Shown here: positions 1,614-30,253 of the stretch, in pieces | Layout: the number at the start of each line of letters is the position of its first letter | Position numbering within the stretch: position 1 is the stretch's first letter | Source: a virus | Lineage: Duplodnaviria > Heunggongvirae > Uroviricota > Caudoviricetes | Virus record (IMG/VR): IMGVR_UViG_3300031998_000032 | Coordinates: 44,042 to 108,041 of that record | Strand: one strand, 5' to 3' | Length of the DNA stretch: 64,000 bases | The notes under the pieces: model-generated | What the model was told of the DNA's origin: nothing | Databases searched by the model: none | Seen by the model: the letters and a program-made list of their open reading frames with translations, nothing else | Program-made: the position numbers and the translations under genes

Positions 1614-2843
1614 TCAGAATTTATTCAGTCTATCAATCACCCGGCGGATGGTAGTATCAATCTTTGCTTGATCATTGGCGATGTAACGTGAAGTGACATT
1701 CTTTGTCCATGAATGTCCCAAACACATACCGACAGTCCTGTCACTTATGTCCAGGTCATTGACGGCAACCGACGCAAAGGTGTATCTCGCGGAGTTTGTG
1801 GTGAGGAACGGGAACAACGGATGGTACTCCAGCTTCAGCCTTCGCCCTCTCTTGTCGGGAACCTTGCTTATCGGCCCGATCTTCTTCAATGCCTTGTTGT
1901 AATGCTGAGTGAAGGTAGTATAATCAGCCATGCTGTCCATTATGTTGAGGAGATAATTCTTACCGCGGTACCGGTTGATTATCTCCATGGCCTCCGGATA
2001 GACAGGCAGGCTTATCTGTCGAATTTTGGTCGCGTTGGATTTATCGGTCTTGCGTCGCACGAATACGAGTCTGCCGTTGGTCAGTCCTTTACAAAGGAGG
2101 AGATCCCCGATGTTGATGCCGGCCAGGTAGGTGGATAAGCAGAAGATATCACGGTATATTCGCTGCCATGGCTCACACGGGTAATCACGCAATACTGCAA
2201 ACTCCTGCGCCGTCAGGTTGTCAACGGCGGTTTCTTCCTCCCGTATCGTATAGCCGTTCTTGCCGAACGGATAATTAGTCGTGACTTTGTTCGCTATGCA
2301 TTGGTTCATCACCGCCTTGATGTTACGCATCTTCTGTGCTATGCCGTTGATGGAGAGTTTGCGCTTGTCTCGCAGATAAGCCTCAAATCCTCTCAGCCAC
2401 GCCGGATTGAGTCCGTCCGGTGTGATGGTCGCGTCATACTCTCTTATGCGTACAGCGGTTAGTAAATAAAGCCTGGCGGTTGATTTCTTCTTACCTGCGG
2501 CATAATCGTCACAGAAGTCAGCCAAAGTCTTGCCGTCGGTCTTTACCTCCTGTACCTCTCTCCCGAGTATCTCGTGTTCAATCTTCTCCTTGATGGCCTG
2601 CAGGGACAATGCAGCATTCCTGTAACACAACTCATTAATGCTATCATAGCATTTGGCGAGCCAGGCTGTCTTTGCTTTGGCACCTACCTCTGATGCAGGG
2701 AAGGTAAAACCCTGGAACTTATACTTCGTATAGACTCCGGTATGTATGAACACTGTCTTATTTGCACGGCGGAGCGCTATCTTTACCGGCATGTCGCCGT
2801 TCTTCTTTGGTTTCCTTCCGTCTATATATATACTGATTTCCAT
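1614..2843 (-). CDS. int: Tyrosine recombinase / phage integrase (Bacteroides phage/CTn type)
   Basis: 409 aa. Starts 'MEISIYIDGRKPKKNGDMPVKIALR'. C-terminal catalytic region '...LGHSWTKNVTSRYIAN' (H-x-x-R ... Y) and N-terminal SAM-like domain typical of Bacteroidota integrases. Confidence 0.85.
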   Translation of the reverse strand: MEISIYIDGRKPKKNGDMPVKIALRRANKTVFIHTGVYTKYKFQGFTFPASEVGAKAKTAWLAKCYDSINELCYRNAALSLQAIKEKIEHEILGREVQEVKTDGKTLADFCDDYAAGKKKSTARLYLLTAVRIREYDATITPDGLNPAWLRGFEAYLRDKRKLSINGIAQKMRNIKAVMNQCIANKVTTNYPFGKNGYTIREEETAVDNLTAQEFAVLRDYPCEPWQRIYRDIFCLSTYLAGINIGDLLLCKGLTNGRLVFVRRKTDKSNATKIRQISLPVYPEAMEIINRYRGKNYLLNIMDSMADYTTFTQHYNKALKKIGPISKVPDKRGRRLKLEYHPLFPFLTTNSARYTFASVAVNDLDISDRTVGMCLGHSWTKNVTSRYIANDQAKIDTTIRRVIDRLNKF

Positions 2844-3096: not shown

Positions 3097-3513
3097 TTAC
3101 TCATTATTAGTATCGTCCGACTGTGTATCATCGTGGTCGCACGTTTTTTGCACGGATTCGGCATTGTTAGCCTGCCGATATAGATCCTGCATTCCTCTGG
3201 TGCAATCCATAAACTGTTTCCATACTTCTATTATCTTGTCGCTGTTGGGCGGCATATTGAGGGTCTTGAAGACTTGTTCCGGTTGAATGCCGTCAGTAGT
3301 TAGCATATTACCTACGCCTCGCATAAGCCACTCTGCGGAGAGATCAGAGTATCTATTTAGAATCTTTTCTATATTGTCGCTTCTCAATGTGGTCCCGTTA
3401 TTGATGGCTTTTCCTATAAGGCCATTGGATAAACCACAGTCTGTTTCCACCCTGTTAAACGCAATTCTTTTTAATTCCAGGTATTCAGCTAACCTGTCAG
3501 TCATATTTCCCAT
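3097..3513 (-). CDS. XRE/CI-like HTH transcriptional repressor (start probably at internal Met, ~3513 or 3504)
   Basis: HTH ending in '...NRYSDLSAEWLMRG', the classic CI/Cro XRE-domain terminus. Diverges from the + strand early genes, as in a lysogeny switch. The ORF-track N-terminal extension to 3654 is probably not coding. Confidence 0.6.
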   Translation of the reverse strand: MGNMTDRLAEYLELKRIAFNRVETDCGLSNGLIGKAINNGTTLRSDNIEKILNRYSDLSAEWLMRGVGNMLTTDGIQPEQVFKTLNMPPNSDKIIEVWKQFMDCTRGMQDLYRQANNAESVQKTCDHDDTQSDDTNNE

Positions 3514-3733
3514 ATTCTTAATAATTGTTAAACTCGGAAACTTTTCCGTATTAGTCTTTGCAGAATAAGGAAAACTCCCTACCTTAGCCCTCAGTAAACG
3601 AACAAACCGATGTGTATAGAAAGGGCTGGCGAAGAGTAAATCCCCTCGTAGCAATATCCAGACCGCAAAGGTGGGTATTTATTCTGAGTCAGCCAAATAC
3701 ACGCGAAAGTTTTCTAAAACATTAACAGAGTAA

Positions 3734-4476: not shown

Positions 4477-4812
4477 ATAGCTCTTTAACATATCAGAAGG
4501 CTCAGTACAGAGCTTAGAGAGGAGACACGAGTGGGTTACGTGCTAACCCGACTGACAATGGACTGCGAGACAGTCCGCCGATGCAGGAAGGACCTGCATA
4601 CCTCTTGACAGATGCAGCCCATGCGTCCAGGCTGAAAACCGATTGTAGGTGAATAGGTAAAATGGGTTGGCGGAGACAACCGCCTATACTGAAGGGGAGA
4701 AATCCCTGAAAGAAAAACATAAGGCTAAGAAAATCTCAGGGGTTGGCATGGCTATTAAACTGCAGGTCACGCTGCACGCCCCAAAAACATAAGCCGGTCA
4801 CAAGCCGGCGGC

Positions 4813-4884
4813 GAGAATATAGCTCAGATGGTAGAGCGATGGGGACTAACCCATGCGTCGCGGGTTCGAGCCCCGCTATTCTCA
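4813..4884 (+). tRNA. tRNA-like gene with a clean cloverleaf except a 6-nt anticodon loop 'GACUAA' containing CUA (or a 4-bp stem with an 8-nt loop)
   Basis: Acceptor gagaata/tattctc, D-arm 'tagctcagatggtagagc', T-arm 'gcggg-ttcgagc-cccgc', 5-nt variable loop. Total 72 nt, one short of canonical. Confidence 0.5.
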
Positions 4885-5029
4885 CACAACTTCTTTTTTT
4901 CGCAAGGTTTGGAATGTAGCAGACCCATAAAAGTCCGTGAGGATCAGGGTTTAGTAAATCGCTTTTTTGGCAATAATTGATTAGTAATTAAGTTTGTTGA
5001 AGTCAGCATTGGATGCTCACGGAGACACC

Positions 5030-5129
5030 CCGAATATGGCGGAATGGTAGACGCGGCAGGTTGGAAGATAGCCCACCAACATAATGCGCCCGTGGGCTGG
5101 GCTTGCAAGTTCGAGTCTTGCTATTCGGG
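5030..5129 (+). tRNA. Type-II (Leu-like) tRNA-like gene with a non-foldable or expanded anticodon region, possible pseudogene
   Basis: Acceptor ccgaata/tattcgg, Leu-type D-arm 'ggcggaatggtagacgc', long variable hairpin 'gcccgtgggc', T-arm 'gcaag-ttcgagt-cttgc'. No 5-7-5 anticodon arm can be drawn; the best is ttgg/ccaa around an 11-nt loop. Total ~100 nt. Confidence 0.35.
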
Positions 5130-5295
5130 CACTACTTGTAAGGTAGGAATATCAATTCTATACTGAAAACTTGTGGTATGCAATCGCCTGTGAAGGTAAT
5201 TCAACCCGGGCGGATAGGGCCGATAACTCTCTCCGCTCACGAATCCCGACCGGATTCGTTATATTCATAAATGTATTATTAGATGGTTATTTGAA

Positions 5296-5328
5296 AAGGG
5301 CCGCTCGTGAGAGTCGCCCTTTTTTTAT
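5296..5328 (+). terminator. Rho-independent terminator after the tRNA cluster
   Basis: 'agggccgctcgtgagagtcgccct' hairpin followed by TTTTTTT. Confidence 0.5.
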
Positions 5329-5342
5329 TTATCAAATAAAAC

Positions 5343-5528
5343 ATGAATTGGTCTGATAAAGCAAAAGAGATAGCTGAGAACATCTACGACAATATGCATC
5401 GCCCTGCTCCGTCTCAAAGCAAAGAACATTTGATAGAGATGCTCGAGAAAGCGGCCATACAAGGTATGGAGCATGAACTCAATCTGTGGATGAACCGGCC
5501 AAAGAAAGAAACAACCGAAAATATATAG
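5343..5528 (+). CDS. hypothetical protein (61 aa)
   Basis: ORF only. Confidence 0.3.
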   Translation: MNWSDKAKEIAENIYDNMHRPAPSQSKEHLIEMLEKAAIQGMEHELNLWMNRPKKETTENI

Positions 5529-5530
5529 AT

Positions 5531-5935
5531 ATGAAACATGATCAAGTGATTTTAGGCCAGCCGCCTTCAAAATCCAACTGCTACAAGGTAATCACCATAG
5601 GTGGGCATGGTAGTTTGGGAAAGACTTCTGCACTATATGCCTATGAGAAATCTTTTGCTCTGCAGTGTGGCGCTTATCGCGACCGGATGATAGAAGGTTT
5701 CTTCAAGATGGATATCGATGTCTATTTTCAGTCGAATCAGCCAGACCTTGACAATGCTATGAAAGTGGTATTAGATTGCCTCCAAAACTGCAAGGCTATC
5801 AAAAACGACCGGCAGTGTACTGAGATCCATGCACGGAAATTCATCGATAAGAATAATCCAAGGATTGAGTTTACTCTCACTGAGGTTTATGGCGTTGAGA
5901 AAAGAGATTCACAAGCACCTACTTTATTTGATTAA
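5531..5935 (+). CDS. rusA: RusA-like Holliday-junction resolvase
   Basis: 'ILGQPPSKSNCYKV' (RusA PPS-N motif) and 'DLDNAMKVVLDCL' (RusA DLDN catalytic motif). Start reassigned to the ATG at 5531, after the upstream ORF's stop. Confidence 0.55.
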   Translation: MKHDQVILGQPPSKSNCYKVITIGGHGSLGKTSALYAYEKSFALQCGAYRDRMIEGFFKMDIDVYFQSNQPDLDNAMKVVLDCLQNCKAIKNDRQCTEIHARKFIDKNNPRIEFTLTEVYGVEKRDSQAPTLFD

Positions 5936-5938
5936 AAA

Positions 5939-6136
5939 ATGATAGACGTAATTGCGATAATCAAGGATATAGAGCAAGTGCGACGCTCCCAAAACATAGA
6001 CCCTCCTTTTGTTCTCCATACAGAGATACAGAATGAGGTTAATAAGAGGTTAAAGGAAGAACTCAACAAAGCTGTCGCTGACGGTGTGTTGGAGTTTCAC
6101 CGCACACTCAATGACATAAGTTTTAACACGAAATAA
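5939..6136 (+). CDS. hypothetical protein (65 aa)
   Basis: ORF only. Confidence 0.3.
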   Translation: MIDVIAIIKDIEQVRRSQNIDPPFVLHTEIQNEVNKRLKEELNKAVADGVLEFHRTLNDISFNTK

Positions 6137-6137
6137 T

Positions 6138-6830
6138 ATGGCAGACAAGAAAGAAAAAACCGAGAATCTCCGATTTTACGAGAGACTCAAAGTGGTGCCG
6201 GAAGAAGCAAAGAAAACGATACAAGGAGGTTCTTTGTCAGGCATGACTGATATCAATCCCCAATACCGTATAGGTATAATGACAGAGGTGTTCGGGCCTT
6301 GCGGTATAGGTTGGAAGTATGAGATTACGAAACAATGGACTGAGACATACGATCAGGAGGTCAAGGCATTCACCAACATCAACCTTTACATAAAGGACGG
6401 AGACCAATGGAGTGAGCCTATCCCTGGTACCGGCGGTTCATCTGCAGTATCCAAGACATCAAAAGGCTATTTCGTTATCAGCGACGAGCATTACAAGATG
6501 TCACTCACAGATGCTCTGTCGGTTGCTATGAAAGCCTTGGGTGTTGCAGGTGATGTTTATTTCGGAAAGGGGATAAAATTCTTCGACACCAAATACGAAC
6601 AGGTTTCTTCGCAACAACCGCAACCTCAACCGCAACCGCAACAGGGTGGAGGCGTGACACAGCAATCTCTGACACCTATGCCGGAAATCCTCAATCAGAT
6701 CGCTCAGGCGCAGGACCTGAAACAGCTTACTGCGATATACAACTCCAATCCTCAGTATCAGAGGAACGCACAGTTCACCGGAGCCCTCACTGCGAGAAAA
6801 GATCAGATAAACGGAAACAACAAGTCTTGA
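6138..6830 (+). CDS. Rad52/Sak-like single-strand annealing protein (putative)
   Basis: 'INPQYRIGIMTEVFGPCGIGWKYEI' resembles the Rad52-like SSAP core. Q/P-rich flexible C-terminus. Sits beside an exonuclease. Confidence 0.4.
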   Translation: MADKKEKTENLRFYERLKVVPEEAKKTIQGGSLSGMTDINPQYRIGIMTEVFGPCGIGWKYEITKQWTETYDQEVKAFTNINLYIKDGDQWSEPIPGTGGSSAVSKTSKGYFVISDEHYKMSLTDALSVAMKALGVAGDVYFGKGIKFFDTKYEQVSSQQPQPQPQPQQGGGVTQQSLTPMPEILNQIAQAQDLKQLTAIYNSNPQYQRNAQFTGALTARKDQINGNNKS

Positions 6831-6831
6831 T

Positions 6832-7752
6832 ATGGAAAAGCCACGACTCAAACAGTCACCGGTGGTGTTCAAGAGTGACACGCATCAGTATTTTCTGGGG
6901 GATAAGGAGCTGAAGGGCATCACGCAGACCCTCATCAGCCGAGCCTTCCCGGATACCTATAAGAAACCCGACTTCTACACTGACGAGCAATGGCAGGAGA
7001 TACTCTCCAATGCAGCAGCTAAAGGAAGCGTGGTTCATGAGACCATTGAGCTCTATGACGAACTTGGTGTGAGCAGTGATTTGCCCGAGCTGCAGAGTTA
7101 TATGCGTATCATGGCGGAGAATGGTTTCTCCGTACTTGCAACAGAGTATGTTGTCAGCGACGAGAAAAATTACGCCACAGCTATCGACAAGGTAGTCATG
7201 GACTCTTATGGTAATATTTACCTCATAGATTTCAAACGCACCTTCGATTTGCATATCGATAACGTCACACTGCAGCAGAGTCTGTGTAAACGGTGGTTTG
7301 AGAAGTTAAACCCGGATCTTTGTATCTCAGGCATATATGTGATGTGGCTGCGGGATGACAAGAGCAAATTCGTCAGACTGACGCCATGGGCTGATGAGCC
7401 GTTGGATGAGCTCATAGAGGCGGATCTCAATGATAAGCCCTTTGATATCCAAAAGACGTTCGGTGAGCTGCCAGCAAGGGTTTATGAAGTGCAGGAGTAT
7501 CTCTCCCAATTGGACGCCGAAGTCAAGGAAAAGACAGAGAAACTAAAGCAAATAAAAGACGGTCTGTGTCAGATGATGCTCGACCGAGGCATCAAGAAAT
7601 TCTCAACGGATATTCTTCAGATGACCACGGTGACTCCCAAACCTAAGAAGTCGTTTGACAGCAAGACCTTTGCCGCAGAGCATCCCGATCTATACGAAAA
7701 GTATCTGAAAGAAAGCGAGGTGAGTCCGAGCATAAGAATCACATTCAAATGA
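6832..7752 (+). CDS. PD-(D/E)xK-family nuclease, putative recombination exonuclease partner of the SSAP
   Basis: 306 aa. '...GSVVHETIE...NIYLIDFKRT' D/E-K-like motif. Position directly after the annealing-protein gene. Confidence 0.35.
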   Translation: MEKPRLKQSPVVFKSDTHQYFLGDKELKGITQTLISRAFPDTYKKPDFYTDEQWQEILSNAAAKGSVVHETIELYDELGVSSDLPELQSYMRIMAENGFSVLATEYVVSDEKNYATAIDKVVMDSYGNIYLIDFKRTFDLHIDNVTLQQSLCKRWFEKLNPDLCISGIYVMWLRDDKSKFVRLTPWADEPLDELIEADLNDKPFDIQKTFGELPARVYEVQEYLSQLDAEVKEKTEKLKQIKDGLCQMMLDRGIKKFSTDILQMTTVTPKPKKSFDSKTFAAEHPDLYEKYLKESEVSPSIRITFK

Positions 7753-8183
7753 AACTGAATTTAGTAGTTACGGATATGGGATTTATCCCAGCCACAGACG
7801 ATGACAAGGAGCAGATAAAGCATCTCAAGCGTGGCACGATAGTCGAAGGCGTGATAAAGGAATACCGCAACTACAAGTTCTTGCGGAAATACTTCTCGCT
7901 CATCAACTGCGCATGGGAGTATTTGACCGAAAAGCAACAGGATTTCTTCTATAACAGCAAGGAGTCCTTCCGCAAGACCGTAGAGATTGCCGCAGGGCAT
8001 TGCGAGCCGGTCTATAACAGAACAAGGAACGAATGGTTGGATATGCCGAAGTCTATAGCGTTTGACAAGCTAACCGAGAGCGAATTTGATGCTCTCTACG
8101 AGCGTGTAAAGGATGTGCTGTATCAGTTATTCATTCCTGATATCAACAAGGATGAGTTTGAAAAAGAACTCATGTGGTTTTAA
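7749..8183 (+). CDS. hypothetical protein (144 aa)
   Basis: ORF only. Confidence 0.35.
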   Translation: MKLNLVVTDMGFIPATDDDKEQIKHLKRGTIVEGVIKEYRNYKFLRKYFSLINCAWEYLTEKQQDFFYNSKESFRKTVEIAAGHCEPVYNRTRNEWLDMPKSIAFDKLTESEFDALYERVKDVLYQLFIPDINKDEFEKELMWF

Positions 8184-8202
8184 ATCAACAATCATTATAA
8201 TT

Positions 8203-8595
8203 ATGGATGTAATCATCAAAGGTTTTGTAACCAAAGTCCTCCCTCTCGAGGAAGGAGTATCACCGAGGACAGGTAATCCCTGGGCCCGTCAGTCTGTCGT
8301 TCTTCAGCATGAAGCCGGTCAGTATCCCAAGAGTATTGTTTTTGATGTCAGCGGCAAAGAGCGCATCAACAACATGGCATTCACCGAAGGTGAGGAAGTA
8401 ACAGTTCATCTGGGAATCAACACTCGTGAGTATCAGGGTAAGTTCTTCAATCAGGTAGAATGCTGGAAGGTGGAAAGAGGACAGCAGGCTCAGGCGGCAC
8501 CAGCACCTCAGGCAGCACCAGCACCTCAGGCACAAGCAGCTCCGGCTCCACAAGCTGCACCTCAGCAACAGAGTGGCGATAGTTTACCATTCTGA
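8203..8595 (+). CDS. ssb: Single-stranded DNA-binding protein-like (OB fold, AP/Q linker, C-terminal acidic tip ending -SLPF)
   Basis: Ends 'QQQSGDSLPF', like the SSB D-(I/L)-PF tail, after a low-complexity 'AQAAPAPQAAPAPQ' linker. Start taken at the ATG at 8203; the upstream ORF-track part overlaps the previous gene. Confidence 0.5.
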   Translation: MDVIIKGFVTKVLPLEEGVSPRTGNPWARQSVVLQHEAGQYPKSIVFDVSGKERINNMAFTEGEEVTVHLGINTREYQGKFFNQVECWKVERGQQAQAAPAPQAAPAPQAQAAPAPQAAPQQQSGDSLPF

Positions 8596-8649
8596 GGTAT
8601 TTAGTCCGGACGGATGTGATAGTCCATCCGGACACCAATCATTCGACCT

Positions 8650-8922
8650 ATGAACGAAATAGACTTCACACAGAAATTCGCCTTTGATTTCATATATAAG
8701 GCTCCTGAGGGATACGAGGAATTCAACACCGATTGGTTTCTATCACCTTCAGGTGATATGATATGCAGACGTGGCGGTTATCAGATAGCGCATGATATTC
8801 TTCCTGTAACCAACTGGCCCGAACACCTTATGGAGAAACGTTGGTTTGATGGCAACACATTCCTGCCAGCTTATTTTGAGGCTTGTAGGCGGGCCGGTAT
8901 CACGACAATAAGAATTATGTGA
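8650..8922 (+). CDS. hypothetical protein (90 aa)
   Basis: ORF only. Confidence 0.35.
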   Translation: MNEIDFTQKFAFDFIYKAPEGYEEFNTDWFLSPSGDMICRRGGYQIAHDILPVTNWPEHLMEKRWFDGNTFLPAYFEACRRAGITTIRIM

Positions 8923-8924
8923 TA

Positions 8925-10240
8925 TATGATCTGACGAGAATAAATAAACAAGCCCGCTCCTTTAGAGGTGGGTATTTCCTATTTTAATTTCTGCTCCATA
9001 TTATGCTTAAAGCAATTACATACGAATTGAAACCTAATTCAACGCAGAAGCAAGCCATTAAGAAAGCATGCGGCTGTGCCAGGTTTGTGTATAATATGGC
9101 TTTGGCGTATAAGGTTGAGCAATACAAGACCAATAAGTTTTCGGTCAGTGAGTATGAGTTGGACAAACTCCTTACCGGTTGGAAAAAGGAATATCTATTT
9201 TTGTCTGATTGCCATATACACGCCTTGCAGCAGAAAATCAAGGATATGTGTAATGCTTTCGGCAATATCAGAAAGATAGGTGCGGGATTTCCGAAATTCA
9301 AGAAGAAGGGAAAATGCAAGGAAACATTCAGGGTTCCTGAACCTTGTAGAATTGACTATGATAAATGGACTTGTAGCATAGCCAAAGTTGGTAAGGTCAG
9401 AATCTACAAAGGGCACAACAAGCAAATAAGCAACATACACTCATATACCGTAGAGTACAAGCCTGCTCTTGACAGGTATTTCGTTTCCATTCTCTATGAA
9501 ACGAGCGAAAGACCTCAAAAGAAGTATGATGGTACTCATTGCGGTATAGATGTGGGTATAAAGACCTTTGCAACTTTAAGTGGCGGCGAGGTGTTTGAGA
9601 ACCAAAAATACCTCAAATCCAATCTTCGGAAGTTGAGAGTGTTGCAACGCAGTGCCGCAAGAAAGTATAAGAGAGGTGTCAAGACCGAAGAACAATCAAG
9701 GAATTGGCACAAGGTGAAGAGACAGGTTGCGGCCTTACATTTGCATATTGCGAATCAGAGAAAGGATTTCAACCATAAGTTGAGCCGTTGGATAGCCGAC
9801 AATTACTACTTGGTAAGTGTTGAGGATTTGGCGGTAAAGAATATGGTGAGGAATCATCATCTTGCACAAGCCATAAACGATGTCGGCTGGCAGAGTTTCC
9901 TGTCTATGTTGGAATACAAGTGTTATGCATTCCAGAAGGTGAATAGGTTCTTTGCAAGCAGTCAGACGTGTGGAGTCTGTGGCTACAAGAACTCTGATGT
10001 AAAGGATTTGGCGGTACGTTCATGGGTGTGTCCTCAATGCGGCACGAGACATGAGCGGGATTTGAATGCCGCCGAGAATATAGACAGGGAAGGACTATCC
10101 CTTTGGAGGCGTAAAGTAAGCGGTTGCGCTATGCTTGCCCCAGAACCCTGCGTGCTTTAGACGTAGGAGTAGTCAGAAGAGTATCTGGAGGCTCTTCCCT
10201 CTTTTATTATTCTCCAGGAAACAATACTCCAGTATGGCAA
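8925..10240 (+). mobile_element. Second IS200/IS605-family tnpB-only element (IS1341-like), inserted between the recombination and replication genes
   Basis: Intact tnpB with short flanks containing hairpin-capable sequence, e.g. 'caagcccgctcctttagaggtggg' upstream and 'ctggaggctcttccctctttt...ctccag' downstream. Confidence 0.55.
9003..10160 (+). CDS. tnpB: TnpB (IS200/IS605 OrfB), second copy, diverged from the one at 66..1208
   Basis: 385 aa. 'GIDVGIKTFATLSGGE' (RuvC-I), 'LVSVEDLAVKNM' (RuvC-II Glu), 'CGVCGY...CPQCGTRHERDLNAAENI' (Zn finger plus RuvC-III). Confidence 0.85.
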   Translation: MLKAITYELKPNSTQKQAIKKACGCARFVYNMALAYKVEQYKTNKFSVSEYELDKLLTGWKKEYLFLSDCHIHALQQKIKDMCNAFGNIRKIGAGFPKFKKKGKCKETFRVPEPCRIDYDKWTCSIAKVGKVRIYKGHNKQISNIHSYTVEYKPALDRYFVSILYETSERPQKKYDGTHCGIDVGIKTFATLSGGEVFENQKYLKSNLRKLRVLQRSAARKYKRGVKTEEQSRNWHKVKRQVAALHLHIANQRKDFNHKLSRWIADNYYLVSVEDLAVKNMVRNHHLAQAINDVGWQSFLSMLEYKCYAFQKVNRFFASSQTCGVCGYKNSDVKDLAVRSWVCPQCGTRHERDLNAAENIDREGLSLWRRKVSGCAMLAPEPCVL

Positions 10241-11109
10241 TACCCGAACATATTATAATAAGCCGTGAATTGATAAACTCAGATATGTATTTATCTGAGA
10301 AATTCACGAAGTTTCAGGCTCTCTTAGATCTGTATTTCCTTGCGGCCACCGAAGACACATCCATCACTGTGCGAGGTATCAAGGTGAACATTAAAAAAGG
10401 GCAAATAGCTGAATCGGAAGAGAGGCTTGCAGCCCGTTGGAAATGGAGCCGGAACACAGTTAGAAAGTTTTTGGTTGAACAACAAAATGAACAACAGATT
10501 GAACAACAAAAAAGCCGACTTATCTCATTGATAACCATAAAGAAAAACAATGTGATGGTTGATAGTGTTGAACAACAAAATGAACAACAGAATAAACAAC
10601 AAAATGAACAACAGATTGAACAACAAAAAACGAAGGTAGAAAAGCCTAAAAAGGAAAAAGATCCTTTGTTCGAGGAATGTTGGGTTGCATACCGACGGAA
10701 GGGCTCAAAGGCCGAGTCTTTGGAACAATGGAACAAACTATCGGAAAAGAATAAAACAAAAGTCCTGCCTCATATACAAGCATATGTCAGTAGCCGTGAA
10801 TGTCAATATCAGAAGGACTTCCAAAGATTTTTACGTGACAAGACATTCAATGACGTCATCGTCAGTCGCGGTGCAGTCATCTTTGATCCCGAGCAAGGCA
10901 GTCAGGAAGAATACAAACCCATTTCGGATGGTTTGAGTCAGACATGGAACCCTCACAGAAAATGCTTGGAGTTCTATGGATATCTTGCCAATCTCAATGA
11001 CGGATACACCGATGACAACCGGCCCGACGGCGCCATGGTAAACTGTGAACTTCATGATTGGATATGGAGCAAAGAGAAAAAGCAATGGGTGATGCAAGAA
11101 ATAAAATAA
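10234..11109 (+). CDS. Replication-initiator / replisome-organizer-like protein with internal iterons
   Basis: N-terminal winged-helix-like region 'YLSEKFTKFQALLDLYFLAATEDTSITVRGIKVNI...'. The gene body carries tandem 12-bp DNA repeats. The ORF-track start at 10135 overlaps the tnpB 3' end and is probably spurious. Confidence 0.35.
   Translation: MAIPEHIIISRELINSDMYLSEKFTKFQALLDLYFLAATEDTSITVRGIKVNIKKGQIAESEERLAARWKWSRNTVRKFLVEQQNEQQIEQQKSRLISLITIKKNNVMVDSVEQQNEQQNKQQNEQQIEQQKTKVEKPKKEKDPLFEECWVAYRRKGSKAESLEQWNKLSEKNKTKVLPHIQAYVSSRECQYQKDFQRFLRDKTFNDVIVSRGAVIFDPEQGSQEEYKPISDGLSQTWNPHRKCLEFYGYLANLNDGYTDDNRPDGAMVNCELHDWIWSKEKKQWVMQEIK
10481..10640 (+). repeat. Iteron-like tandem 12-bp repeats TGAACAACA(A/G)A(A/T)(A/T), 3 + 5 copies split by ~55 bp
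   Basis: Seen directly: 'ttgaacaacaaaatgaacaacagattgaacaacaaaaaa' ... 'ttgaacaacaaaatgaacaacagaataaacaacaaaatgaacaacagattgaacaacaaaaaa'. They encode EQQNEQQIEQQK. Confidence 0.7.
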
Positions 11110-11112
11110 GAG

Positions 11113-11721
11113 ATGGAAGAAATATGGAAAGATATCGAGGGATGGGCGAGCCTTTATCAAATCAGTAATTTAGGCAGGGTTCGTTCTCTTGATAGATATG
11201 TTCCTCTTTCTTCTGGGGGTCAGAAATATTGCAAAGGACAAATTCTTGTTTTACGTCGAGATAAAGATGGATACTGTATAGTTCATTTGCGTGATGCGTC
11301 AACAGGAAGAAATAAGATGTTGAAAGTTCATAGGCTTGTTGCTAACGCTTTTATACCGTTTGTTCGTGGTAAAAATTTAATCGATCATATAAACGGCATA
11401 AGAGACGATAATCGAGTGGATAATCTTCGATGGTGTACCTGTAAGGAAAATCTAAACTTTCCAATTGCAAGGATTAACAATTCAAATAGTACGCGAGAAT
11501 CTTACAATCGCCATCCTGAATTGCGAAAGATAAGAGCGAAAATATTCAGTGCTGCTGTTAGTATGAAAGTTCTCGTTAAAAAAACAGGTGTTGTTATTGG
11601 TTGTTTCGACTCTCAAAAAGATGCCGCAAAACAATTAGGGTTCGCCCCAAGTACAATTTCTGCTTTTATGACGGGGAAATTAAAAGTTCCAAATGGGTAT
11701 GAATTTATCCGATTGACATGA
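11113..11721 (+). CDS. HNH homing endonuclease (NUMOD4 N-terminal motif + HNH_3 + C-terminal NUMOD1-like DNA-binding module)
   Basis: 'WASLYQISNLGRVRSL' (NUMOD4), 'HRLVANAFIP...IDHINGIRDDNRVDNLRWCT' (HNH), 'VLVKKTGVVIGCFDSQKDAAKQLG' (NUMOD1-like). Confidence 0.75.
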   Translation: MEEIWKDIEGWASLYQISNLGRVRSLDRYVPLSSGGQKYCKGQILVLRRDKDGYCIVHLRDASTGRNKMLKVHRLVANAFIPFVRGKNLIDHINGIRDDNRVDNLRWCTCKENLNFPIARINNSNSTRESYNRHPELRKIRAKIFSAAVSMKVLVKKTGVVIGCFDSQKDAAKQLGFAPSTISAFMTGKLKVPNGYEFIRLT

Positions 11722-13850
11722 ATATTGAAGAAATACGAAAATGGCATAAGATTTTCAAACGAGATGACGAATTGTTTGAGATTCGTTTGCTTGGTGATAA
11801 GACATATAGCGGATATTTCTACGATGTAGAACAAGCGATTGAAGCTCTCAAGCCTTATGATACATGGAATATTTACTTTTCTGTCAATGAGGTTAAACGT
11901 GCCTGCGCCAGTCGTTCTCAATATGGCAGATTTCAGCAAGTAAAGGGAACAGCCACAAGTAAACAAGATATAGAACACCGATGGTATCTCCCCATTGATG
12001 TTGATTGCGAGAGGCCCAGTGGAGTCAGTTCAACTGATGCTGAGAAAGAATTAGCGCATCAAAAAGCCGGTGCGGTTTATAGATTTCTCAAAGAAAATGG
12101 ATTTTGTGAGCCGATTGTATGCGATTCGTCGAGTGGATATCATATCTTCATTCCGATAGATATGGAAAACACCTTGGAGGCGGAGCAGACAATTAAAAAC
12201 TTTCTCGAAATTCTTGGAAGTAATTTCACGGATGAACACGTTAAGATAGATAATGTCTTATTTGATGCAAACCGAATTATTCGCCTTCCGGGTTCTTTTG
12301 GTAGAAAAGGACGTAGCACCGAAGAAAGACCGCATAGACAAGCTCGGATATTGAGTGCGCCGGATGAGATTGTTCGAGTAAATAAGGCTTTTATTGATGC
12401 GTTTAATGAGAAATTTAAGATTGTTACTGAACAACCGGCCAACAAAAATTACAATTATAGTAATGGAAATAGGGAGGAGTTCAATCTTCGTAAATTTATA
12501 AGTGACCACAACATAAGTGTCGCAAAGGAAGTTCCCCTTCCTGGAGGTGGCACCAAATACGTGCTGACCGAATGCCCCTTTGATTCCGGTCATAAAAATC
12601 CGGATTCAGCCATCTTTGAAATGCCAAACGGAGCAATAGCCTTCAAGTGCTTTCATCAGAGTTGCTCTCATCATGATTGGCATGAATTAAGGTTGATGTT
12701 TGAGCCGAACGCATATGATCCTAAGCCTCAAACAAATTTTAATCAACCGCAGCGTCAGTACCAACCTCAACCCCAACCGGTTCACTACCAACCGGTACCC
12801 GAGATAAAGCCTGAAACGCCCGAGTTGGGTAAGAAATGGTTCTCAATGAAGGATATAACGAAGGTCAACGTGAATGACCTTCCTCATGTCAAGACAGGAT
12901 TCACCGAACTCGACCGACGTATCAAGGGTTTGTTCTTCGGTTCCCTCATGGTGCTTAGCGGTTCCAATTCATCGGGTAAATCCTCATGGCTGAACACTCT
13001 TATCCTGAATTTCCTGCAGCAGAATGAAAAGTGTGCATTATGGTCCGGTGAGTTGAGGCCCGACGTGCTGAAGGCATGGATACAGATGGTAGCCGCAGGA
13101 GCCAGGCATCTGAATAAATCCGACCATGGCAGCTATTTCTTCGTGAATGACATGATTGGCGCGAAGATAGACCGGTGGATGGATGGTAAGTTCTTCCTGT
13201 ACAACAACGAGTATTCAAACAAATGGGAGCAGATTTTCTCCGACATGAGAGAACTCTTGAAGTTGGGTGTCCGCATATTCATCTTGGATAACCTATTCTC
13301 GATGGATATTGACATCTTCGGTGGAGACAACAACAAACAGCAGAAAGACCTGGTTAATCAGATCACCGAGTTCTGCAAGAAAGAGATGGCAATCGTCATC
13401 CTTGTTGCTCATCCGAGAAAGACTTCTGCTTTCATACGTAAGATTGACATCTCAGGAAACAGCAATATCACCGATGCAGCCTCTTATGTCGCTATAATGC
13501 ATCGTGTCAATCAGGATTTTCGCCGTAGTGTCAAGGAGGTCTTCCCCAACCTTCTGTTCAGGCCCGACCAGAACTCCCCCGAGTTCAATAATATGCTCGA
13601 GATTGCCAAGGACCGAATGATGGGTGTGCAGGATTACTTCTGCGGTATGTATTACGAGATGGAGAGCCGCAGGTTCAAGAACACCATGGTCGAGCAAGTT
13701 GAATACGGATGGCGTGATGATATCGGAGTTCAGATGTCATTCAAGGAACCGGAACCTATTCAACAACCTGTCGACGAGCCACCGGCGGCACCGGTAGACA
13801 ACACTATTCCGTTCAGTGCGCCTGACTCGAGCGATGAACCCCCTTTCTAA
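11718..13850 (+). CDS. Primase-helicase fusion: AEP (prim-pol) primase domain + Zn-binding region + DnaB-like (SF4) helicase domain
   Basis: 'LPIDVDCERP' and 'SSSGYHIFIPID' (AEP motifs). 'CPFDSGHKNPD...CFHQSCSHHDWH' (Zn). 'KTGFTELDRRIKG...LSGSNSSGKSSWL' (DnaB H1 / Walker A). 'RIFILDNLF' (Walker B). Confidence 0.7.
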   Translation: MNIEEIRKWHKIFKRDDELFEIRLLGDKTYSGYFYDVEQAIEALKPYDTWNIYFSVNEVKRACASRSQYGRFQQVKGTATSKQDIEHRWYLPIDVDCERPSGVSSTDAEKELAHQKAGAVYRFLKENGFCEPIVCDSSSGYHIFIPIDMENTLEAEQTIKNFLEILGSNFTDEHVKIDNVLFDANRIIRLPGSFGRKGRSTEERPHRQARILSAPDEIVRVNKAFIDAFNEKFKIVTEQPANKNYNYSNGNREEFNLRKFISDHNISVAKEVPLPGGGTKYVLTECPFDSGHKNPDSAIFEMPNGAIAFKCFHQSCSHHDWHELRLMFEPNAYDPKPQTNFNQPQRQYQPQPQPVHYQPVPEIKPETPELGKKWFSMKDITKVNVNDLPHVKTGFTELDRRIKGLFFGSLMVLSGSNSSGKSSWLNTLILNFLQQNEKCALWSGELRPDVLKAWIQMVAAGARHLNKSDHGSYFFVNDMIGAKIDRWMDGKFFLYNNEYSNKWEQIFSDMRELLKLGVRIFILDNLFSMDIDIFGGDNNKQQKDLVNQITEFCKKEMAIVILVAHPRKTSAFIRKIDISGNSNITDAASYVAIMHRVNQDFRRSVKEVFPNLLFRPDQNSPEFNNMLEIAKDRMMGVQDYFCGMYYEMESRRFKNTMVEQVEYGWRDDIGVQMSFKEPEPIQQPVDEPPAAPVDNTIPFSAPDSSDEPPF

Positions 13851-13893
13851 CACAATTTAATAACCATATTGTCTAACTAAAAAACAAACAAAA

Positions 13894-14406
13894 ATGGCAG
13901 AAAGAAGTAGAAGTGGTTTTTGGATGGAAACAACAATTGAGGTAACAGAAACCACACCGAAAGGTCTTCCGAAGACCGTGAAAGAGAAGTATGTAGTTGA
14001 GGCTGCGTCATTCATCGATGCAGAGGAACGTATCCGTAAGGAGCTGAATTACAGCAACCGGCCTATCCGCAACGTAGCCGGTATTATTCGTCCTAAGTAC
14101 GGTGAGATTTGCTTCAGTGACGATACCGCTGCAGAGAATTGGTACAAAGCCAAGGTGGTGACCACCGAGGAGGTTGAGGTTCGCACACGTAAGGGTGGCA
14201 CCCGCACCAAGACAAAGAGCGTATCTCATTTCTACCTTATCCAGTCGGACAGCAACGAGAATGCTCGCAAGGCAGTTGACGAGGTGATCTACAAGGGTTC
14301 CAACGAGGACTACGAGATTGCTGACATTCAGAAGACCCGTATCCTTGACGTCCTGGAGTTTGACAAGCACCTCAAGAAGAAGGAAGAGGAGAAGAAGGGA
14401 GAATAA
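13894..14406 (+). CDS. hypothetical protein (170 aa)
   Basis: ORF with KKKEEEKKGE tail. No motif recognised. Confidence 0.4.
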   Translation: MAERSRSGFWMETTIEVTETTPKGLPKTVKEKYVVEAASFIDAEERIRKELNYSNRPIRNVAGIIRPKYGEICFSDDTAAENWYKAKVVTTEEVEVRTRKGGTRTKTKSVSHFYLIQSDSNENARKAVDEVIYKGSNEDYEIADIQKTRILDVLEFDKHLKKKEEEKKGE

Positions 14407-14432
14407 ACGTTTTGTTGTTATTGTTGGTAAGC

Positions 14433-14470
14433 CTCATGCCGGTCATCCGGTGTGGGGCTTCTTTTTTTGA
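14433..14470 (+). terminator. Rho-independent terminator
   Basis: 'aagcctcatgccggtcatccggtgtggggctt' hairpin followed by 'cttttttt'. Confidence 0.5.
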
Positions 14471-14473
14471 AAG

Positions 14474-14953
14474 ATGAAGACATACGTAATCACCTTATCG
14501 CAGGTATTCCCTGTCACCCACAATCGGGCCGGCGAGCCAACGGGATTCAAGGCCAAATTTGAAGCAAGTATCCACCATTTTGGTGACCAATGGCAGAAGT
14601 TGCATACCATACGAGCCAATTACGGCTTATGGCGTCAACGTTTCGATGAGATAGAGGCCGGTAAAGCTTGTCTGTCGATCCGTCAGTGGTCCGGCAAGCC
14701 TTATTGCTCCAAGCAGATTGAATTGGCGGTCCTGACAAAAGAGGATGGTATCGGTATTCAGAAACTTGAATTCACGGCCGACCGGGACGGGATGTATTCC
14801 TTTAATATGTTTGATATTGATGGAAGGTCTTTAGACAAAATACAATTGGCTATAAATGACGGCCTTGTACTTAATGATTGGATGGAATGGTTCCGGAAAT
14901 ACGATCTCTCGCAGCCCTTGGCGGTAATTCATTTCACACCATACAGGTATTAA
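14474..14953 (+). CDS. hypothetical protein (159 aa)
   Basis: ORF only. Confidence 0.4.
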   Translation: MKTYVITLSQVFPVTHNRAGEPTGFKAKFEASIHHFGDQWQKLHTIRANYGLWRQRFDEIEAGKACLSIRQWSGKPYCSKQIELAVLTKEDGIGIQKLEFTADRDGMYSFNMFDIDGRSLDKIQLAINDGLVLNDWMEWFRKYDLSQPLAVIHFTPYRY

Positions 14954-14969
14954 CTCAACTATCAATCAC

Positions 14970-15425
14970 ATGAGCCAGCGCTACCTTGTTTCTGTTGTCA
15001 TCGCAGGTAAATGCGTACACTCCTATTTCTCATCCAATTTGGATGATCTGGTTACCATCAAAGCCTTATACAAAGGTTGTGAGATAAGCATCTTTGATAT
15101 GGAGCGTCTCATTGCACTGACAGCGAGTGAGATTACCGAGGAACTCGTCAAATCCAGGCTGCGATGGAAGAACTCTCTTCATCCGGAGCCCGTACAGCCC
15201 GAACCGGTCGTCGAAGAAGAGAAGCCCAAGGCTCAGAAGCATCCGAAGTGTTGGAAACGCACGGTTCTTTGTGTGGAGACAGGGCAGATATTCGATTCTG
15301 TGCGTGAATGCAGTGAACATATAGGTCTTCCCTATATGACTATTGTGAACTGTATCAAGAATAAAAATGCGACTCGCGGTCTTCATTTCACCGCAATAGA
15401 CAACCAAGACGAAGATGAGATTTGA
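14970..15425 (+). CDS. NUMOD1-like DNA-binding domain protein with no nuclease domain
   Basis: C-terminus 'VLCVETGQIFDSVRECSEHIGLPYMTIVNCIKNKNATRGLHFTAID' follows the V..ETG..F.S..eA....G pattern seen in the HNH enzymes at 11113 and 56121. Confidence 0.4.
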   Translation: MSQRYLVSVVIAGKCVHSYFSSNLDDLVTIKALYKGCEISIFDMERLIALTASEITEELVKSRLRWKNSLHPEPVQPEPVVEEEKPKAQKHPKCWKRTVLCVETGQIFDSVRECSEHIGLPYMTIVNCIKNKNATRGLHFTAIDNQDEDEI

Positions 15426-15732
15426 TAAAGAAGTTGTGGATTTGCTGCTTCCTTTTATCAGTGAGGCCGGAGGAGTTGAAAGGGCTGTTATCTTATCTGC
15501 TTCCCGGCTAAGGCAAGCATCTGTCTGCCGTTTTATTCTTTTTCGTTTTCTCTATGAGGATCTGAAATGGTCAACGCCACGTATAGGTCGTGCGTTTCAT
15601 AGAGAACACGCCACGGTGATACACGGCATTAACAGAGCGAAAGATTTCATTTCACTCCCTTCATACGGAATAGAACGGGCTGTTCACGATGATTTTATCG
15701 AGAAGGTGATGATCCACGAGAACGAAAACTAA
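15415..15732 (+). CDS. DnaA C-terminal domain (domain IV)-like HTH protein, free-standing
   Basis: 'RQASVCRFILFRFLYEDLKWSTPRIGRAFHREHATVIHGINRAKD' vs DnaA 'RQIAMYL...[23 protein letters not shown]'. Confidence 0.55.
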   Translation: MRFDKEVVDLLLPFISEAGGVERAVILSASRLRQASVCRFILFRFLYEDLKWSTPRIGRAFHREHATVIHGINRAKDFISLPSYGIERAVHDDFIEKVMIHENEN

Positions 15733-15736
15733 AAAA

Positions 15737-15807
15737 GGACCTACAGTGTGGCGGTCGCACAATAGCCCTTGGCACTATTAGTCCTGGTTCGACTCCAGGT
15801 AGGTCTG
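15737..15807 (+). tRNA. tRNA-like gene, Gln(UUG)-like anticodon arm but with C at position 33 and a C-A at 31-39
   Basis: Acceptor ggaccta/taggtct (G1-U72), D-stem gtgt/gcac, anticodon arm 'atagc-ccttggc-actat', T-arm 'cctgg-ttcgact-ccagg'. 71 nt. Confidence 0.5.
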
Positions 15808-15825
15808 CAAAAACCATATTAGCTT

Positions 15826-21051: not shown

Positions 21052-21801
21052 ATGGAAATCAAAGGGCGCGTACATCTTCTGTACGAGCAATCAGGTTGCT
21101 TCAAGAATGAATTCAAGAAGCTGGGATTTGAAGCCTTCGATATTGACATCCAGAACAATTTCGGTGAGACGGATTATCAGATAGATCTGTTTGCGGAGAT
21201 AGAGAATGCCTACGATTCGCTTGTAAGTGGCGATGCTCAGAAGAGTCTTCTTGATAACATCACCACCGATGACCTTACCATTGCCTTTCAGCCCTGCATC
21301 TACTTCTCCGCCAACAACTCCTACATCTTTGATGGCACATGGCAGACATACAAACAGAGAGGTATGACGCAACTTGAAATCAACCAAGCCATCCTCGAGC
21401 GTAGCAAGGAGCGTCAGAGGTTCTATGAGATAGCATTGAAGATGTTCACCTACTTTGACGTGACGGGTAAAAGGCTTATCGTCGAGAACCCCTACTCAAA
21501 GATTCACTACTTGCATAACAACTTCCCTTACAAGCCGGCACTGATAGACAAGAACCGCCAACTCCGAGGTGATTACTTTGCCAAACCTACTCAGTATTGG
21601 TTTGTCAACTGCGAGCCTACACATGGCTTTACCCGTCAGGACCCCACTGAAAAGCGTAACGTCTATCAGCTGTCCGGCCACACGGGTAACCTCTGTGACG
21701 AAGACAGGTCCATGATTGCACCGGCATACGCTCACAACCTAATCGTCGATAATATCCTCGGCAAACCTCAGATATTACAACAACTATCACTGTTTGACTG
21801 A
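21052..21801 (+). CDS. C5-cytosine DNA methyltransferase-like protein (short, 249 aa)
   Basis: 'IAFQPCIYFS' (PC motif IV-like), 'LIVENPYS' (ENV motif VI-like), 'LYEQSGCF' (weak motif I). No obvious target-recognition domain. Confidence 0.35.
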   Translation: MEIKGRVHLLYEQSGCFKNEFKKLGFEAFDIDIQNNFGETDYQIDLFAEIENAYDSLVSGDAQKSLLDNITTDDLTIAFQPCIYFSANNSYIFDGTWQTYKQRGMTQLEINQAILERSKERQRFYEIALKMFTYFDVTGKRLIVENPYSKIHYLHNNFPYKPALIDKNRQLRGDYFAKPTQYWFVNCEPTHGFTRQDPTEKRNVYQLSGHTGNLCDEDRSMIAPAYAHNLIVDNILGKPQILQQLSLFD

Positions 21802-28014: not shown

Positions 28015-28073
28015 AGCGTTTGATTTGATGATTTGTTTGTGGGTCCGGACAACTCCCGTTATCCGAGCCCTTA

Positions 28074-29432: not shown

Positions 29433-29671
29433 AATTGTTTGTTTTGATTGTTCGTAGTAGACGGGAGTACTCGCATACTCACCGTCCTTGTCACACTTAA
29501 AACTCGAAACATTCCTCCTTTTGCGGGAGTGAATGGTGACGGGCCACTCATCCCTGAGAAGCCCGCCTGTTTCACACTTTAAAACTCAACGTTATGAATT
29601 TTGAGTTTACCGACTTGAATCGGCGACACAAAGATAACTCTTTTTTTGAATTATGTTCGTTTATTCATGGA

Positions 29672-29914: not shown

Positions 29915-29932
29915 CTTCCTTTGTTTATTCGG

Positions 29933-30190: not shown

Positions 30191-30253
30191 AATCTTTGTT
30201 TTTAGTTAGACATATAGCTCTCCGCGTAGTTATCATACTACGCAGGGATGAGT

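Follow-up and report, generated by a model that had tools for sequence, protein, structure and literature searches.

Three tRNA-like genes with abnormal anticodon regions are present in a 64,000-nt stretch of tailed phage DNA, positions 44,042-108,041 of IMG/VR record IMGVR_UViG_3300031998_000032, which in its full length is called the window here and whose own numbering is used for all coordinates (L-numbers such as L001 or L439 are labels for phage loci or contigs compared with the window). The genes, all on the plus strand, are tRNA-1 (4813-4885), tRNA-2 (5030-5129) and tRNA-3 (15737-15808). The first two are placed between a gene for a helix-turn-helix (HTH) protein and that for RusA, and the third 10 kb downstream, between a DnaA_C-like gene and one for a protein of 281 aa; the three loci are conserved slots of an early recombination/replication operon. 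From comparison with related phages, the anticodon part appears to have been repeatedly swapped or reshaped with the rest of each gene being kept, and this suggests selection rather than decay or misfolding.

Reality and structure of the genes

The three loci are genuine tRNA-derived genes. All score above the gathering score of 29 for Rfam RF00005 (54.3 bits for tRNA-1, 38.4 for tRNA-2 and 38.5 for tRNA-3), with tRNA-1 alone being reported in a whole-window Rfam run with default filters. ARAGORN output for the whole window comprises two genes, tRNA-??? at 4813-4885 and tRNA-Gln(ttg) at 15737-15808, with no call for tRNA-2. Each of the three is 100% identical across contigs from separate ENA, Logan and JGI samples, an identity that excludes assembly or sequencing error.

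In none of them is the anticodon loop of the standard kind, 7 nt long with U33 and a purine at position 37 and closed by a 5-bp stem. The loop is of 6 nt in tRNA-1 and 11 nt in tRNA-2, and neither has an assignable anticodon; that of tRNA-3 is of 7 nt but with C33 and a C31.A39 mismatch. The core residues U8, A14, G18-G19, A21 and T54-Psi55-C56 are kept in tRNA-1 and tRNA-2, and tRNA-3 has C8, G14 and C21. Fold z-scores are -3.1 for tRNA-1, -1.0 for tRNA-2 and about -1 for tRNA-3, and in neither of the latter two is the cloverleaf the structure of minimum free energy. A preliminary description of this DNA had given all three genes good acceptor, D and T arms, tRNA-1 a six-nucleotide loop GACUAA containing CUA, tRNA-2 a Leu-type body with an 11-nt loop and no canonical anticodon arm, and tRNA-3 a UUG anticodon with C33 and a C-A at 31-39. 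This structural account is right in every detail, being matched by ARAGORN and the sequence for tRNA-1, by RF00005 and the sequence for tRNA-2, and by ARAGORN for tRNA-3. The same description's worry that the odd arms might be a folding error is laid to rest by ARAGORN and RF00005, no canonical 7-nt/U33 arm having emerged from the former.

Exchange of interiors between close relatives

The closest relative, L439/L440, is a 101-kb Logan contig syntenic with the window and with a mean identity to it of 86%. It has a tRNA-like gene in each of the three slots, with acceptor stems kept, flanks 95-97% identical and interiors replaced. In slot 1, hardly a difference exists in the 110 nt upstream, in the 5′ acceptor strand or in the 3′ part of the gene (variable loop, T arm and 3′ acceptor strand), but positions ~9-46 are unrelated, with L439 having another D arm and a Thr-CGU-like loop, AUCGUAA, on a stem with two mismatches. 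In slot 2 the acceptor strands and flanks alone are common, all between having been replaced, and the L439 gene, of 77 nt, has for its anticodon arm a 7-bp hairpin with a UUUA tetraloop. Slot 3 of L439 is a canonical tRNA-Gln with the loop UUUUGGU, and its ~19 differences from the window gene are crowded in positions 5-46, the flanks having 1-2 differences per 40-50 nt. When identity is scored in 40-nt sliding windows (n=890), the lowest values include those of the tRNA-2 interior (30-50%) and the tRNA-1 interior (50%), with low values elsewhere coming from indels, the immunity region and one intergenic stretch. Divergence of this extent inside near-identical flanks rules out neutral point mutation; to judge from the alignments, the interiors have been replaced by recombination, or have evolved under strong directional selection, or both.

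Such patterns bear on the possibility, in our view unlikely, that the odd genes are relics of a dispensable and recombining island, with tRNA-2 and tRNA-3 at least being non-functional chimeras or decaying copies. Island content does vary greatly among relatives, some having no tRNA at all, and a contiguous internal patch leaves stems paired without a need for selection. However, interiors 30-70% identical inside flanks of 95-97% identity are beyond the reach of neutral point mutation, and acceptor and T arms are perfect in nearly all variants. The individual genes, considered in turn below, pull in different directions on this issue.

The GACUAA family

tRNA-1 is class I, as is evident from ARAGORN, RF00005, its minimum-free-energy structure, which is a perfect cloverleaf, and the alignment of its family. 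Outside the anticodon arm its structure is canonical (acceptor, D arm, variable loop, T arm), the discriminator is A and no CCA is encoded. Its loop, GACTAA in the DNA (4844-4849), is closed by GGG/CCC on the 5-bp stem ATGGG/CCCAT, both by ARAGORN, whose 'anticodon' here consists of two bases (ct), and by comparison with relatives. (A reading with an 8-nt loop was rejected; the G31-C39 pair, which it would break, is found in every member of the family.)

The arm (R)YGGG-GACUAA-CCCRU, together with the same D stem and variable loop, recurs on three acceptor/T-arm bodies: that of the window (GAGAATA...), that of L001, L158 and L438 (GGGGATA...), and body c (TGCCGTA...TACGGCA) of L180, L222 and L296, of which there are loop variants GAUUAA in L245 and L295 and UGCAAA in L009. 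Loop length is 6 in 7/7 distinct family genes, and a covariance model built from the tRNA-1 family found no member with a 7-nt loop. In the alignment of the seven genes, all helix cells (100%) are paired with standard pairs, and eight pairs have changed on both sides, against 0/500 shuffles and at most two pairs in slid controls. From phage to phage, body-c genes share 91-99% identity, against 48-65% for the 600 nt of flanking sequence, and the differences that do exist are located in the D loop and the 6-nt loop. On sequence grounds such conservation points to a selected RNA or very recent transfer, and not to a pseudogene. Identity of the arm on three bodies, compensated stems and retention much better than that of the flanks are, for tRNA-1, all at odds with its being a relic.

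In body c the T loop has G55 and GG is often missing from the D loop (the window copy has canonical D and T loops), and the UGCAAA variant of this body can close as a U-A pair and a GCAA tetraloop; these features argue against ordinary ribosomal decoding for body c. No gene co-occurs specifically with the GACUAA module.

Immediately upstream, a hairpin, GCCGG-TCACAAG-CCGGC (4793-4809, plus strand; sequence and stem-loop scan), ends 3 nt before the 5′ end of tRNA-1. In L001 the homologous position is occupied by GCCTGT-GCAA-ACAGGC, of like structure but with another sequence in the stem, and a leader or processing element would be a guess as to its nature. A separate observation concerns a 57-nt element on the minus strand (47044-47100) just after a terminator-like hairpin and T run (~47105-47135). 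It comprises an acceptor-like stem of 6 bp (TACCCT/AGGGTA), a small hairpin, CTGG-AAA-CCTGG, and a T arm that is perfect, GTAGG-TTCGATC-CCTAC, and there is no D arm. The element scores 19 bits with the tRNA-1 family model, has no Rfam tRNA match, and may be a fourth, truncated tRNA-derived element.

tRNA-3, a derived tRNA-Gln

By ARAGORN, RF00005 and a three-way alignment with L439 and L081, tRNA-3 is a derivative of tRNA-Gln(UUG) with C8, G14, C21, C31.A39, C33 and C38. Its loop, CCTTGGC (C32 C33 U34 U35 G36 G37 C38; 15767-15773), corresponds to TTTTGGT in L439 and CTTTGGT in L081, both canonical tRNA-Gln genes, so that C stands in the window gene at both 33 and 38, the positions of the non-anticodon uridines. 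The C8, G14 and C21, in place of U8, A14 and A21 in the relatives, are absent from the preliminary description. L081, whose neighboring protein is 86% identical, differs from tRNA-3 at 13 positions, four of which constitute two compensated stem pairs (5-68 and 28-42) and one of which is L081's own T-loop change; the remaining changes are at 8, 9, 14, 21, 31/39, 33 and 38, with UUG and G37 untouched.

In favor of relics, tRNA-3 has U8, A14, A21 and U33 gone, a C.A mismatch present and the anticodon stem unpredicted, and tRNA-2 is a singleton with a poor thermodynamic signal. Yet every ordinary stem substitution in tRNA-3 is compensated. As far as the alignment goes, its state fits both a dying gene and a tRNA reshaped to evade recognition while still pairing with CAA and CAG; it probably still decodes.

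tRNA-2 and its putative transcription unit

The 100-nt tRNA-2 has an acceptor CCGAATA/TATTCGG, a Leu-type D arm GGCGGAATGGTAGACGC that is also that of many canonical phage tRNA-Leu genes, a T arm GCAAG-TTCGAGT-CTTGC, a variable hairpin GCCC-GTGGGCT-GGGC (5088-5102) and a G discriminator. Where an anticodon arm would be expected there is an interrupted hairpin of 32 nt, formed by GCA/TGC and, beyond it, GTTGG/CCAAC with its loop of 11 nt, AAGAUAGCCCA. GTTGG/CCAAC (5060-5064/5076-5080), the sole anticodon-like helix of the gene, is stacked on GCA/TGC (5056-5058/5085-5087), and within the 5060-5080 hairpin the 11-nt loop, AAGATAGCCCA, has UAG at its center. A short archaeal-type intron was considered and set aside, there being no 5-bp anticodon stem after any excision that can be drawn and the host being bacterial. 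In L428, the RusA of which is 96% identical, the slot-2 homologue is cut by the contig end and is followed by a canonical tRNA-Ser(GCU).

A promoter-like site of Bacteroides type, TTTG-N19-TAAGTTTG (4966-4996, plus strand), found by a pattern search with the Bacteroides consensus, is 33 nt upstream of tRNA-2. The pattern has three matches in the window versus 1.9 expected by chance, so that the count is weak, with the position being the notable feature. About 170 nt downstream of the gene is a strong intrinsic-terminator-like hairpin, GGGCCGCTC-GTGA-GAGTCGCCC followed by T7 (5298-5326, plus strand), whose one internal mismatch caused it to be missed in a consensus scan; a sub-threshold Rfam match, BTnc231, aligns there. 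With its own promoter-like site and terminator, which bound a unit of ~320 nt, tRNA-2 looks like a small separate transcription unit. The trailer between gene and terminator (5218-5297, plus strand), which forms short hairpins, has 40-48% identity to L439 in 40-nt windows and is absent from L428.

Odd anticodon arms in the clade and beyond

Counting class I-type matches and ARAGORN calls upstream of RusA, about 20 of about 45 tRNA-like genes in the RusA-linked islands have non-canonical anticodon arms, with loops of 6, 8 or 13-66 nt, or C33 or A33. Canonical tRNAs (Gln-UUG, Ser-GCU, initiator-type CAU and Lys-UUU) are found in some phages of the clade. L296 has a 140-nt Ser-like version, and human-gut relatives have a Leu-like gene with a 58-nt middle. 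Expansion is also prominent in one body, CATTCTG...CAGAATG, with canonical D and T arms, that is present in six related phages (L004 842-914, L182 3608-3681, L199 2881-2962, L005 2220-2326, L006 1738-1843 and L184 3521-3652) with loops of 7 (with C33), 8, 18, 41, 40 and 66 nt; it seems that a conserved frame has received insertions in its anticodon loop. In a Leu-like class with the acceptor AGTCAGG/CCTGACT, known from IMG/VR loci (L339, L352, L373, L402, L372, L368, L322, L401, L406, L344, L386, L365, L377, L379 and L392), acceptor, D and T arms are identical, but the 30-60-nt middle shares neither sequence nor length between phages and in no case folds as a canonical anticodon arm; no neighboring gene is conserved beside these genes across 14 loci. 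L441, whose RusA is in the same 90% identity cluster as that of the window, has at 5798-6260 three further odd tRNA-like genes: one with a class I body and an AUUGAGA loop, whose anticodon is UGA, one resembling an initiator, with CAU and U37, and a third with GCG and A33.

Such expansions raise the possibility that the genes are structural punctuation or scaffolds, i.e. that the tRNA frame recruits RNase P, RNase Z or the CCA-adding enzyme to cut or stabilize early transcripts or to present a small RNA cargo, with the anticodon arm being either unconstrained or itself the cargo. What is conserved is what end-processing enzymes read, one body is compatible with loops of 7, 8, 18, 40, 41 or 66 nt, the Leu-like mimics have a hypervariable 30-60-nt middle, and tRNA-2 sits in its own promoter-to-terminator unit. 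Nevertheless, we regard it as distinctly unlikely as an explanation for the set, as a free arm leaves the exact conservation of GGG-GACUAA-CCC across bodies unexplained, tRNA-3 retains the Gln anticodon and G37, and antisense matches in the window do not exceed chance. With respect to the latter, complements to the three anticodon regions in the window are at longest 9-10 nt, as expected from shuffles, and TTAGTC is not enriched; an antisense form of the tRNA-derived regulatory RNA that had been suggested earlier accordingly finds no target there.

Six-nucleotide loops are not confined to the GACUAA family. An IMG/VR pattern in which the distance from D stem to variable loop is fixed at one nt below normal returned 106 stretches, among which are at least 34 distinct phage tRNA genes with a well-paired 5-bp stem and a 6-nt loop (L207-L308), several of them in multiple variant copies. 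Examples are TTACAA (five variants), CTACGG (five variants), TCTTAA, TCCAAA and TGCTAA. Many resemble a canonical loop from which position 32 (U-NNN-R-N) or 38 (C-U-NNN-R) has been removed, but GACUAA is a poor fit to both. Annotation pipelines would label such genes undetermined or pseudo. Literature on conserved 6-nt anticodon loops, or on cassette-like turnover of anticodon halves in phage tRNAs, was not found in a search of incomplete coverage, which is absence of evidence only, and a review of frameshifting held nothing relevant to 6-nt anticodon loops.

Stop codon use and suppression

The CUA in the tRNA-1 loop naturally brings amber suppression to mind. The window uses the standard code, with open reading frames (ORFs) in that code occupying 93% of it, and the 20 kb outside it consists of tightly packed standard-code genes that include an ORF of 2003 aa. 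When alternative codes are compared there is no specific gain in ORF length from reading TAG as sense, a comparison of ORF cover in relatives gives recoding no support either, and on neither strand of the window is there a TAG flanked on each side by coding potential. TAG is the least frequent stop, terminating 5 of 101 crude gene calls, and read-through of the five would add 1, 1, 10, 33 and 51 codons, nothing recognizable. Without recoding, the genome gives no reason to need a suppressor. An amber suppressor of the type known from recoded phages was therefore rejected, as no in-frame TAG needs read-through and the CUA, in a 6-nt loop and preceded by G-A, is not at 34-36 of a 7-nt loop; the earlier suggestion of a nonsense suppressor fails on the same grounds, together with the standard code over ~84 kb and the lack of any convincing read-through extension. 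Frameshift suppression of the quadruplet-reading type, also proposed earlier, needs an 8-nt loop and a 4-base anticodon and is incompatible with loops of 6 and 11 nt, and with that of 7 nt in tRNA-3.

A less orthodox possibility is that of unconventional decoders, with tRNA-1 reading UAG by way of the CUA at loop positions 3-5, or shifting frame, and GAUUAA being its ochre counterpart, perhaps as an early step towards recoding, or with 6-nt loops in general decoding without position 32 or 38. On the same body, GACUAA and GAUUAA present CUA and UUA, one transition apart and both stop-reading anticodons; TAG is rare; at least 30 other phage genes have 6-nt loops, many with U33-NNN-R37-N38 or C32-U33-NNN-R37; and Borges et al. 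reported acquisition of a suppressor tRNA by a standard-code phage and expected non-canonical suppressor tRNAs to have been missed (bioRxiv 10.1101/2021.08.26.457843). Even so, decoding of this sort is very unlikely given the coding pattern just described, the unrecognizable nature of the five extensions, the lack of U33 in GACUAA, the potential of the L009 UGCAAA loop to close to a GCAA tetraloop on a body whose G55 and free-running D loop are unlike those of a ribosomal substrate, and the differing acceptors and discriminators of the three bodies, with no single synthetase identity evident. Within it, tRNA-1 may be a weak or incipient suppressor.

Phage, host and neighboring genes

The element represented by the window is a temperate tailed phage using the standard code. 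Its genome of ~108 kb has been recovered from several samples as contigs of 108,048 and 108,034 bp, and as the window wraps round the contig ends, which fall inside it, the genome is probably circular. The host is probably a rumen Bacteroidales bacterium, as indicated by a SAM_5-type integrase, a helicase relative found within a Bacteroidaceae genome assembled from a red-deer metagenome, and the Bacteroides-type promoter consensus before tRNA-2. The INPHARED phage collection has no close cultured relative, and the sole match in it is the tRNA-Asn of Ruminococcus phages (82% over 62 nt), which has a normal CUGUUAA loop.

The integrase gene (1614-2843, minus strand) is followed by a repressor-like gene (3097-3654, minus strand) and then by the plus-strand early operon, which encodes the HTH protein, RusA, exonucleases and HNH endonucleases, together with a helicase loader (DnaD-like) and a helicase (DnaB-like); the phage also encodes a portal and a large terminase with a probable intein. 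That the tRNA-like genes might be an attP (integration-site) remnant was set aside, all three being full cloverleaves, 2-13 kb from the integrase and within the early operon. Searches of ~60 window proteins with Pfam, PHROGs and PADLOC revealed no RNA ligase, polynucleotide kinase, aminoacyl-tRNA synthetase, CCA-adding enzyme, anticodon nuclease or known defense system.

The window has two TnpB (IS605 OrfB/Cas12f-like) genes, at 66-1208 (minus strand) and 9003-10160 (plus strand), and as the syntenic L439 lacks the latter, its insertion in the early operon is recent. Free-standing HNH/NUMOD4 endonuclease genes are at 11113-11721, 24880-25455 and 56121-57032. The large terminase gene (59740-62496, minus strand; 918 aa) has a Hom_end segment at residues ~268-331, ahead of the Terminase_6N domain, that is probably the intein. 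A second tyrosine integrase and a FtsK/SpoIIIE-type ATPase are encoded at 27178-29432 (minus strand). The ~18 kb from 29500 to 48000 has on the minus strand ~45 small ORFs (70-260 aa) in mixed frames, with no credible Pfam match among ten that were scanned; they are not pieces of recoded genes.

A gene with a Tad3 domain (PF25185) adjoins the integrase just left of window position 1 (L445 11607-12599, from the same genome) and likewise in L439 (4160-5152), with a lysozyme (Glyco_hydro_108) gene and a Pyr_excise gene nearby, which indicates an accessory region of anti-defense type next to the lysogeny module. At 21052-22727 (plus strand) a DNA-methyltransferase-like gene (phrog_757) precedes one for a radical-SAM protein (phrog_9298, E 1.7e-107; no Pfam match at E <= 0.01), with another radical-SAM gene found near the integrase of L441.

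Proposed selection on the anticodon half

The explanation favored here, tentatively and as something short of probable, is that the three genes are selected tRNA derivatives with a diversifying anticodon half, held by a phage for which host enzymes that attack or recognize the anticodon domains of tRNAs would be the opponent. Across the clade, every slot keeps its acceptor stem, and slots 1 and 3 the T arm too, with the interior, mainly D and anticodon arms, being rapidly exchanged or remodeled; the abnormal loops would then be products of recombination and of selection on the anticodon half. tRNA-3 could then be a nuclease-resistant decoder, its anticodon and G37 kept with loop, 31-39 pair and 8-14-21 core altered. 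tRNA-1, with its fixed 6-nt-loop family, and tRNA-2, a tRNA frame around an expanded hairpin, would be processed and stable, and are probably non-decoding mimics that may act as decoys, sponges or inhibitors titrating such enzymes. Structure, conservation, slot architecture and the lack of recoding come straight from the sequence data, whereas expression, processing and any interaction with a nuclease we infer.

Several considerations weigh against it. A contiguous 9-46 patch keeps all stems automatically, and chimeric tRNAs could arise and persist without selection. Covariation in the tRNA-1 family derives from just three independent bodies, and recent horizontal transfer, instead of purifying selection, could account for the high identity of body-c genes. 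The cloverleaf of tRNA-2 is not its minimum-free-energy fold, no homologue of its interior other than identical copies was found with blastn, blastn-short and nhmmer against ~450 loci or in an IMG/VR pattern scan, and for its status context is the only guide. tRNA-3 has lost the near-universal U8, A14, A21 and U33, its anticodon stem is not in the predicted fold, and, as noted, a dying gene would look no different. Finally, the window has no tRNA-repair enzyme, aminoacyl-tRNA synthetase or known defense gene among those sought.

The preliminary description had entertained a pseudogene for any one of the three and took their number to suggest function. A functional role is supported for tRNA-1 (conserved arm, three bodies, compensated stems, better kept than its flanks), for which the pseudogene idea can be dropped; for all three together the support is indirect, coming from replacement of the interiors alone between near-identical phages. 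tRNA-3, with compensated stems but a degraded core and loop, and the singleton tRNA-2 are where the pseudogene idea retains some purchase. Among the functions listed in that description, the best fits would be a nuclease-resistant variant for tRNA-3 and a decoy or mimic for tRNA-1 and tRNA-2.

Relation to known systems

Phage tRNAs with anticodon-loop substitutions predicted to block anticodon nucleases are known (PMC10264068), and phage tRNAs are reported to overcome PARIS (PMC11464382) and retron (PMC11555353) defense. In the published cases (mycobacteriophage C1 versus VapC-like nucleases, PMC10264068; T5 tRNA-Lys versus PARIS, PMC11464382, and others versus retron effectors, PMC11555353), as in tRNA-3, the loop differs while the anticodon is kept. 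There the changes are point substitutions in a normal 7-nt loop of an otherwise canonical tRNA, whereas the window genes have altered loop lengths (6 and 11 nt), swapped D and anticodon halves, and changes at core positions 8, 14 and 21. For tRNA-3, which keeps UUG and G37 and differs at 31, 33, 38 and 39, the likeness is drawn relative to the tRNA-Gln of related phages and not to a host tRNA. tRNA anticodon cleavage has also been reported for Cas13 effectors, making Cas13 another possible pressure on anticodon domains, though nothing ties it to this host.

Suppressor tRNAs of recoded gut phages (Borges et al., bioRxiv 10.1101/2021.08.26.457843; Peters et al., PMC9523058) resemble the present case in their setting in gut or rumen Bacteroidota phages, the CUA of the tRNA-1 loop and the rarity of TAG, but the window genome is not recoded and the tRNA-1 loop is of 6 nt without U33. 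The frameshift suppressors SufB2 and SufJ (PMC4238358; bioRxiv 10.1101/2020.12.31.424971) are alike in having an anticodon loop of abnormal length; theirs is reported to be of 8 nt, one extra, against one fewer in tRNA-1 and four more in tRNA-2, and no frameshift site is known in the phage. The window genes lack defining features of canonical tRNAs (7 nt with U33), of recoding suppressors (in-frame TAG and a 7-nt loop with CUA) and of quadruplet readers (8 nt). The tRNA-miRNA units of murine gammaherpesvirus 68 and engineered tRNA scaffolds are tRNA-like scaffolds of another kind. In them a tRNA frame is kept for processing and stability around a non-decoding insert, as is proposed here, but they are from a eukaryotic virus or artificial, and for the phage genes no cargo function or target was found.

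tRNA cleavage is a major antiviral strategy (PrrC, VapC, PARIS, retron effectors, Cas13 and Cas12a3) and phage tRNAs with loop point changes are a known counter to it. Nuclease-evading point variants being known already, what would be new here is conserved 6-nt loops and turnover of anticodon halves, for which no precedent was found in the part of the literature that was searched. It is possible, though on the doubtful side, that the genes belong to an undescribed class of tRNA mimics of rumen and gut Bacteroidales phages, with a conserved acceptor/T frame and an exchangeable or hypervariable anticodon domain that includes the GACUAA module, which serve as decoys or inhibitors of tRNA-targeting immunity, turnover of the cassettes being the footprint of an arms race; in a variant of this proposal the 6-nt-loop tRNAs would be functional decoders that escape anticodon nucleases. 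With near-identical backgrounds and all three tRNA interiors different, the window phage and L439 constitute a natural experiment. If the genes are indeed selected mimics, phage counter-measures would extend from point changes to altered loop length and to swaps of whole anticodon domains, and pipelines that discard 'undetermined' or 'pseudo' genes would be hiding a sizeable class, ~20 of ~45 in this clade and at least 30 genes with 6-nt loops from one narrow pattern.

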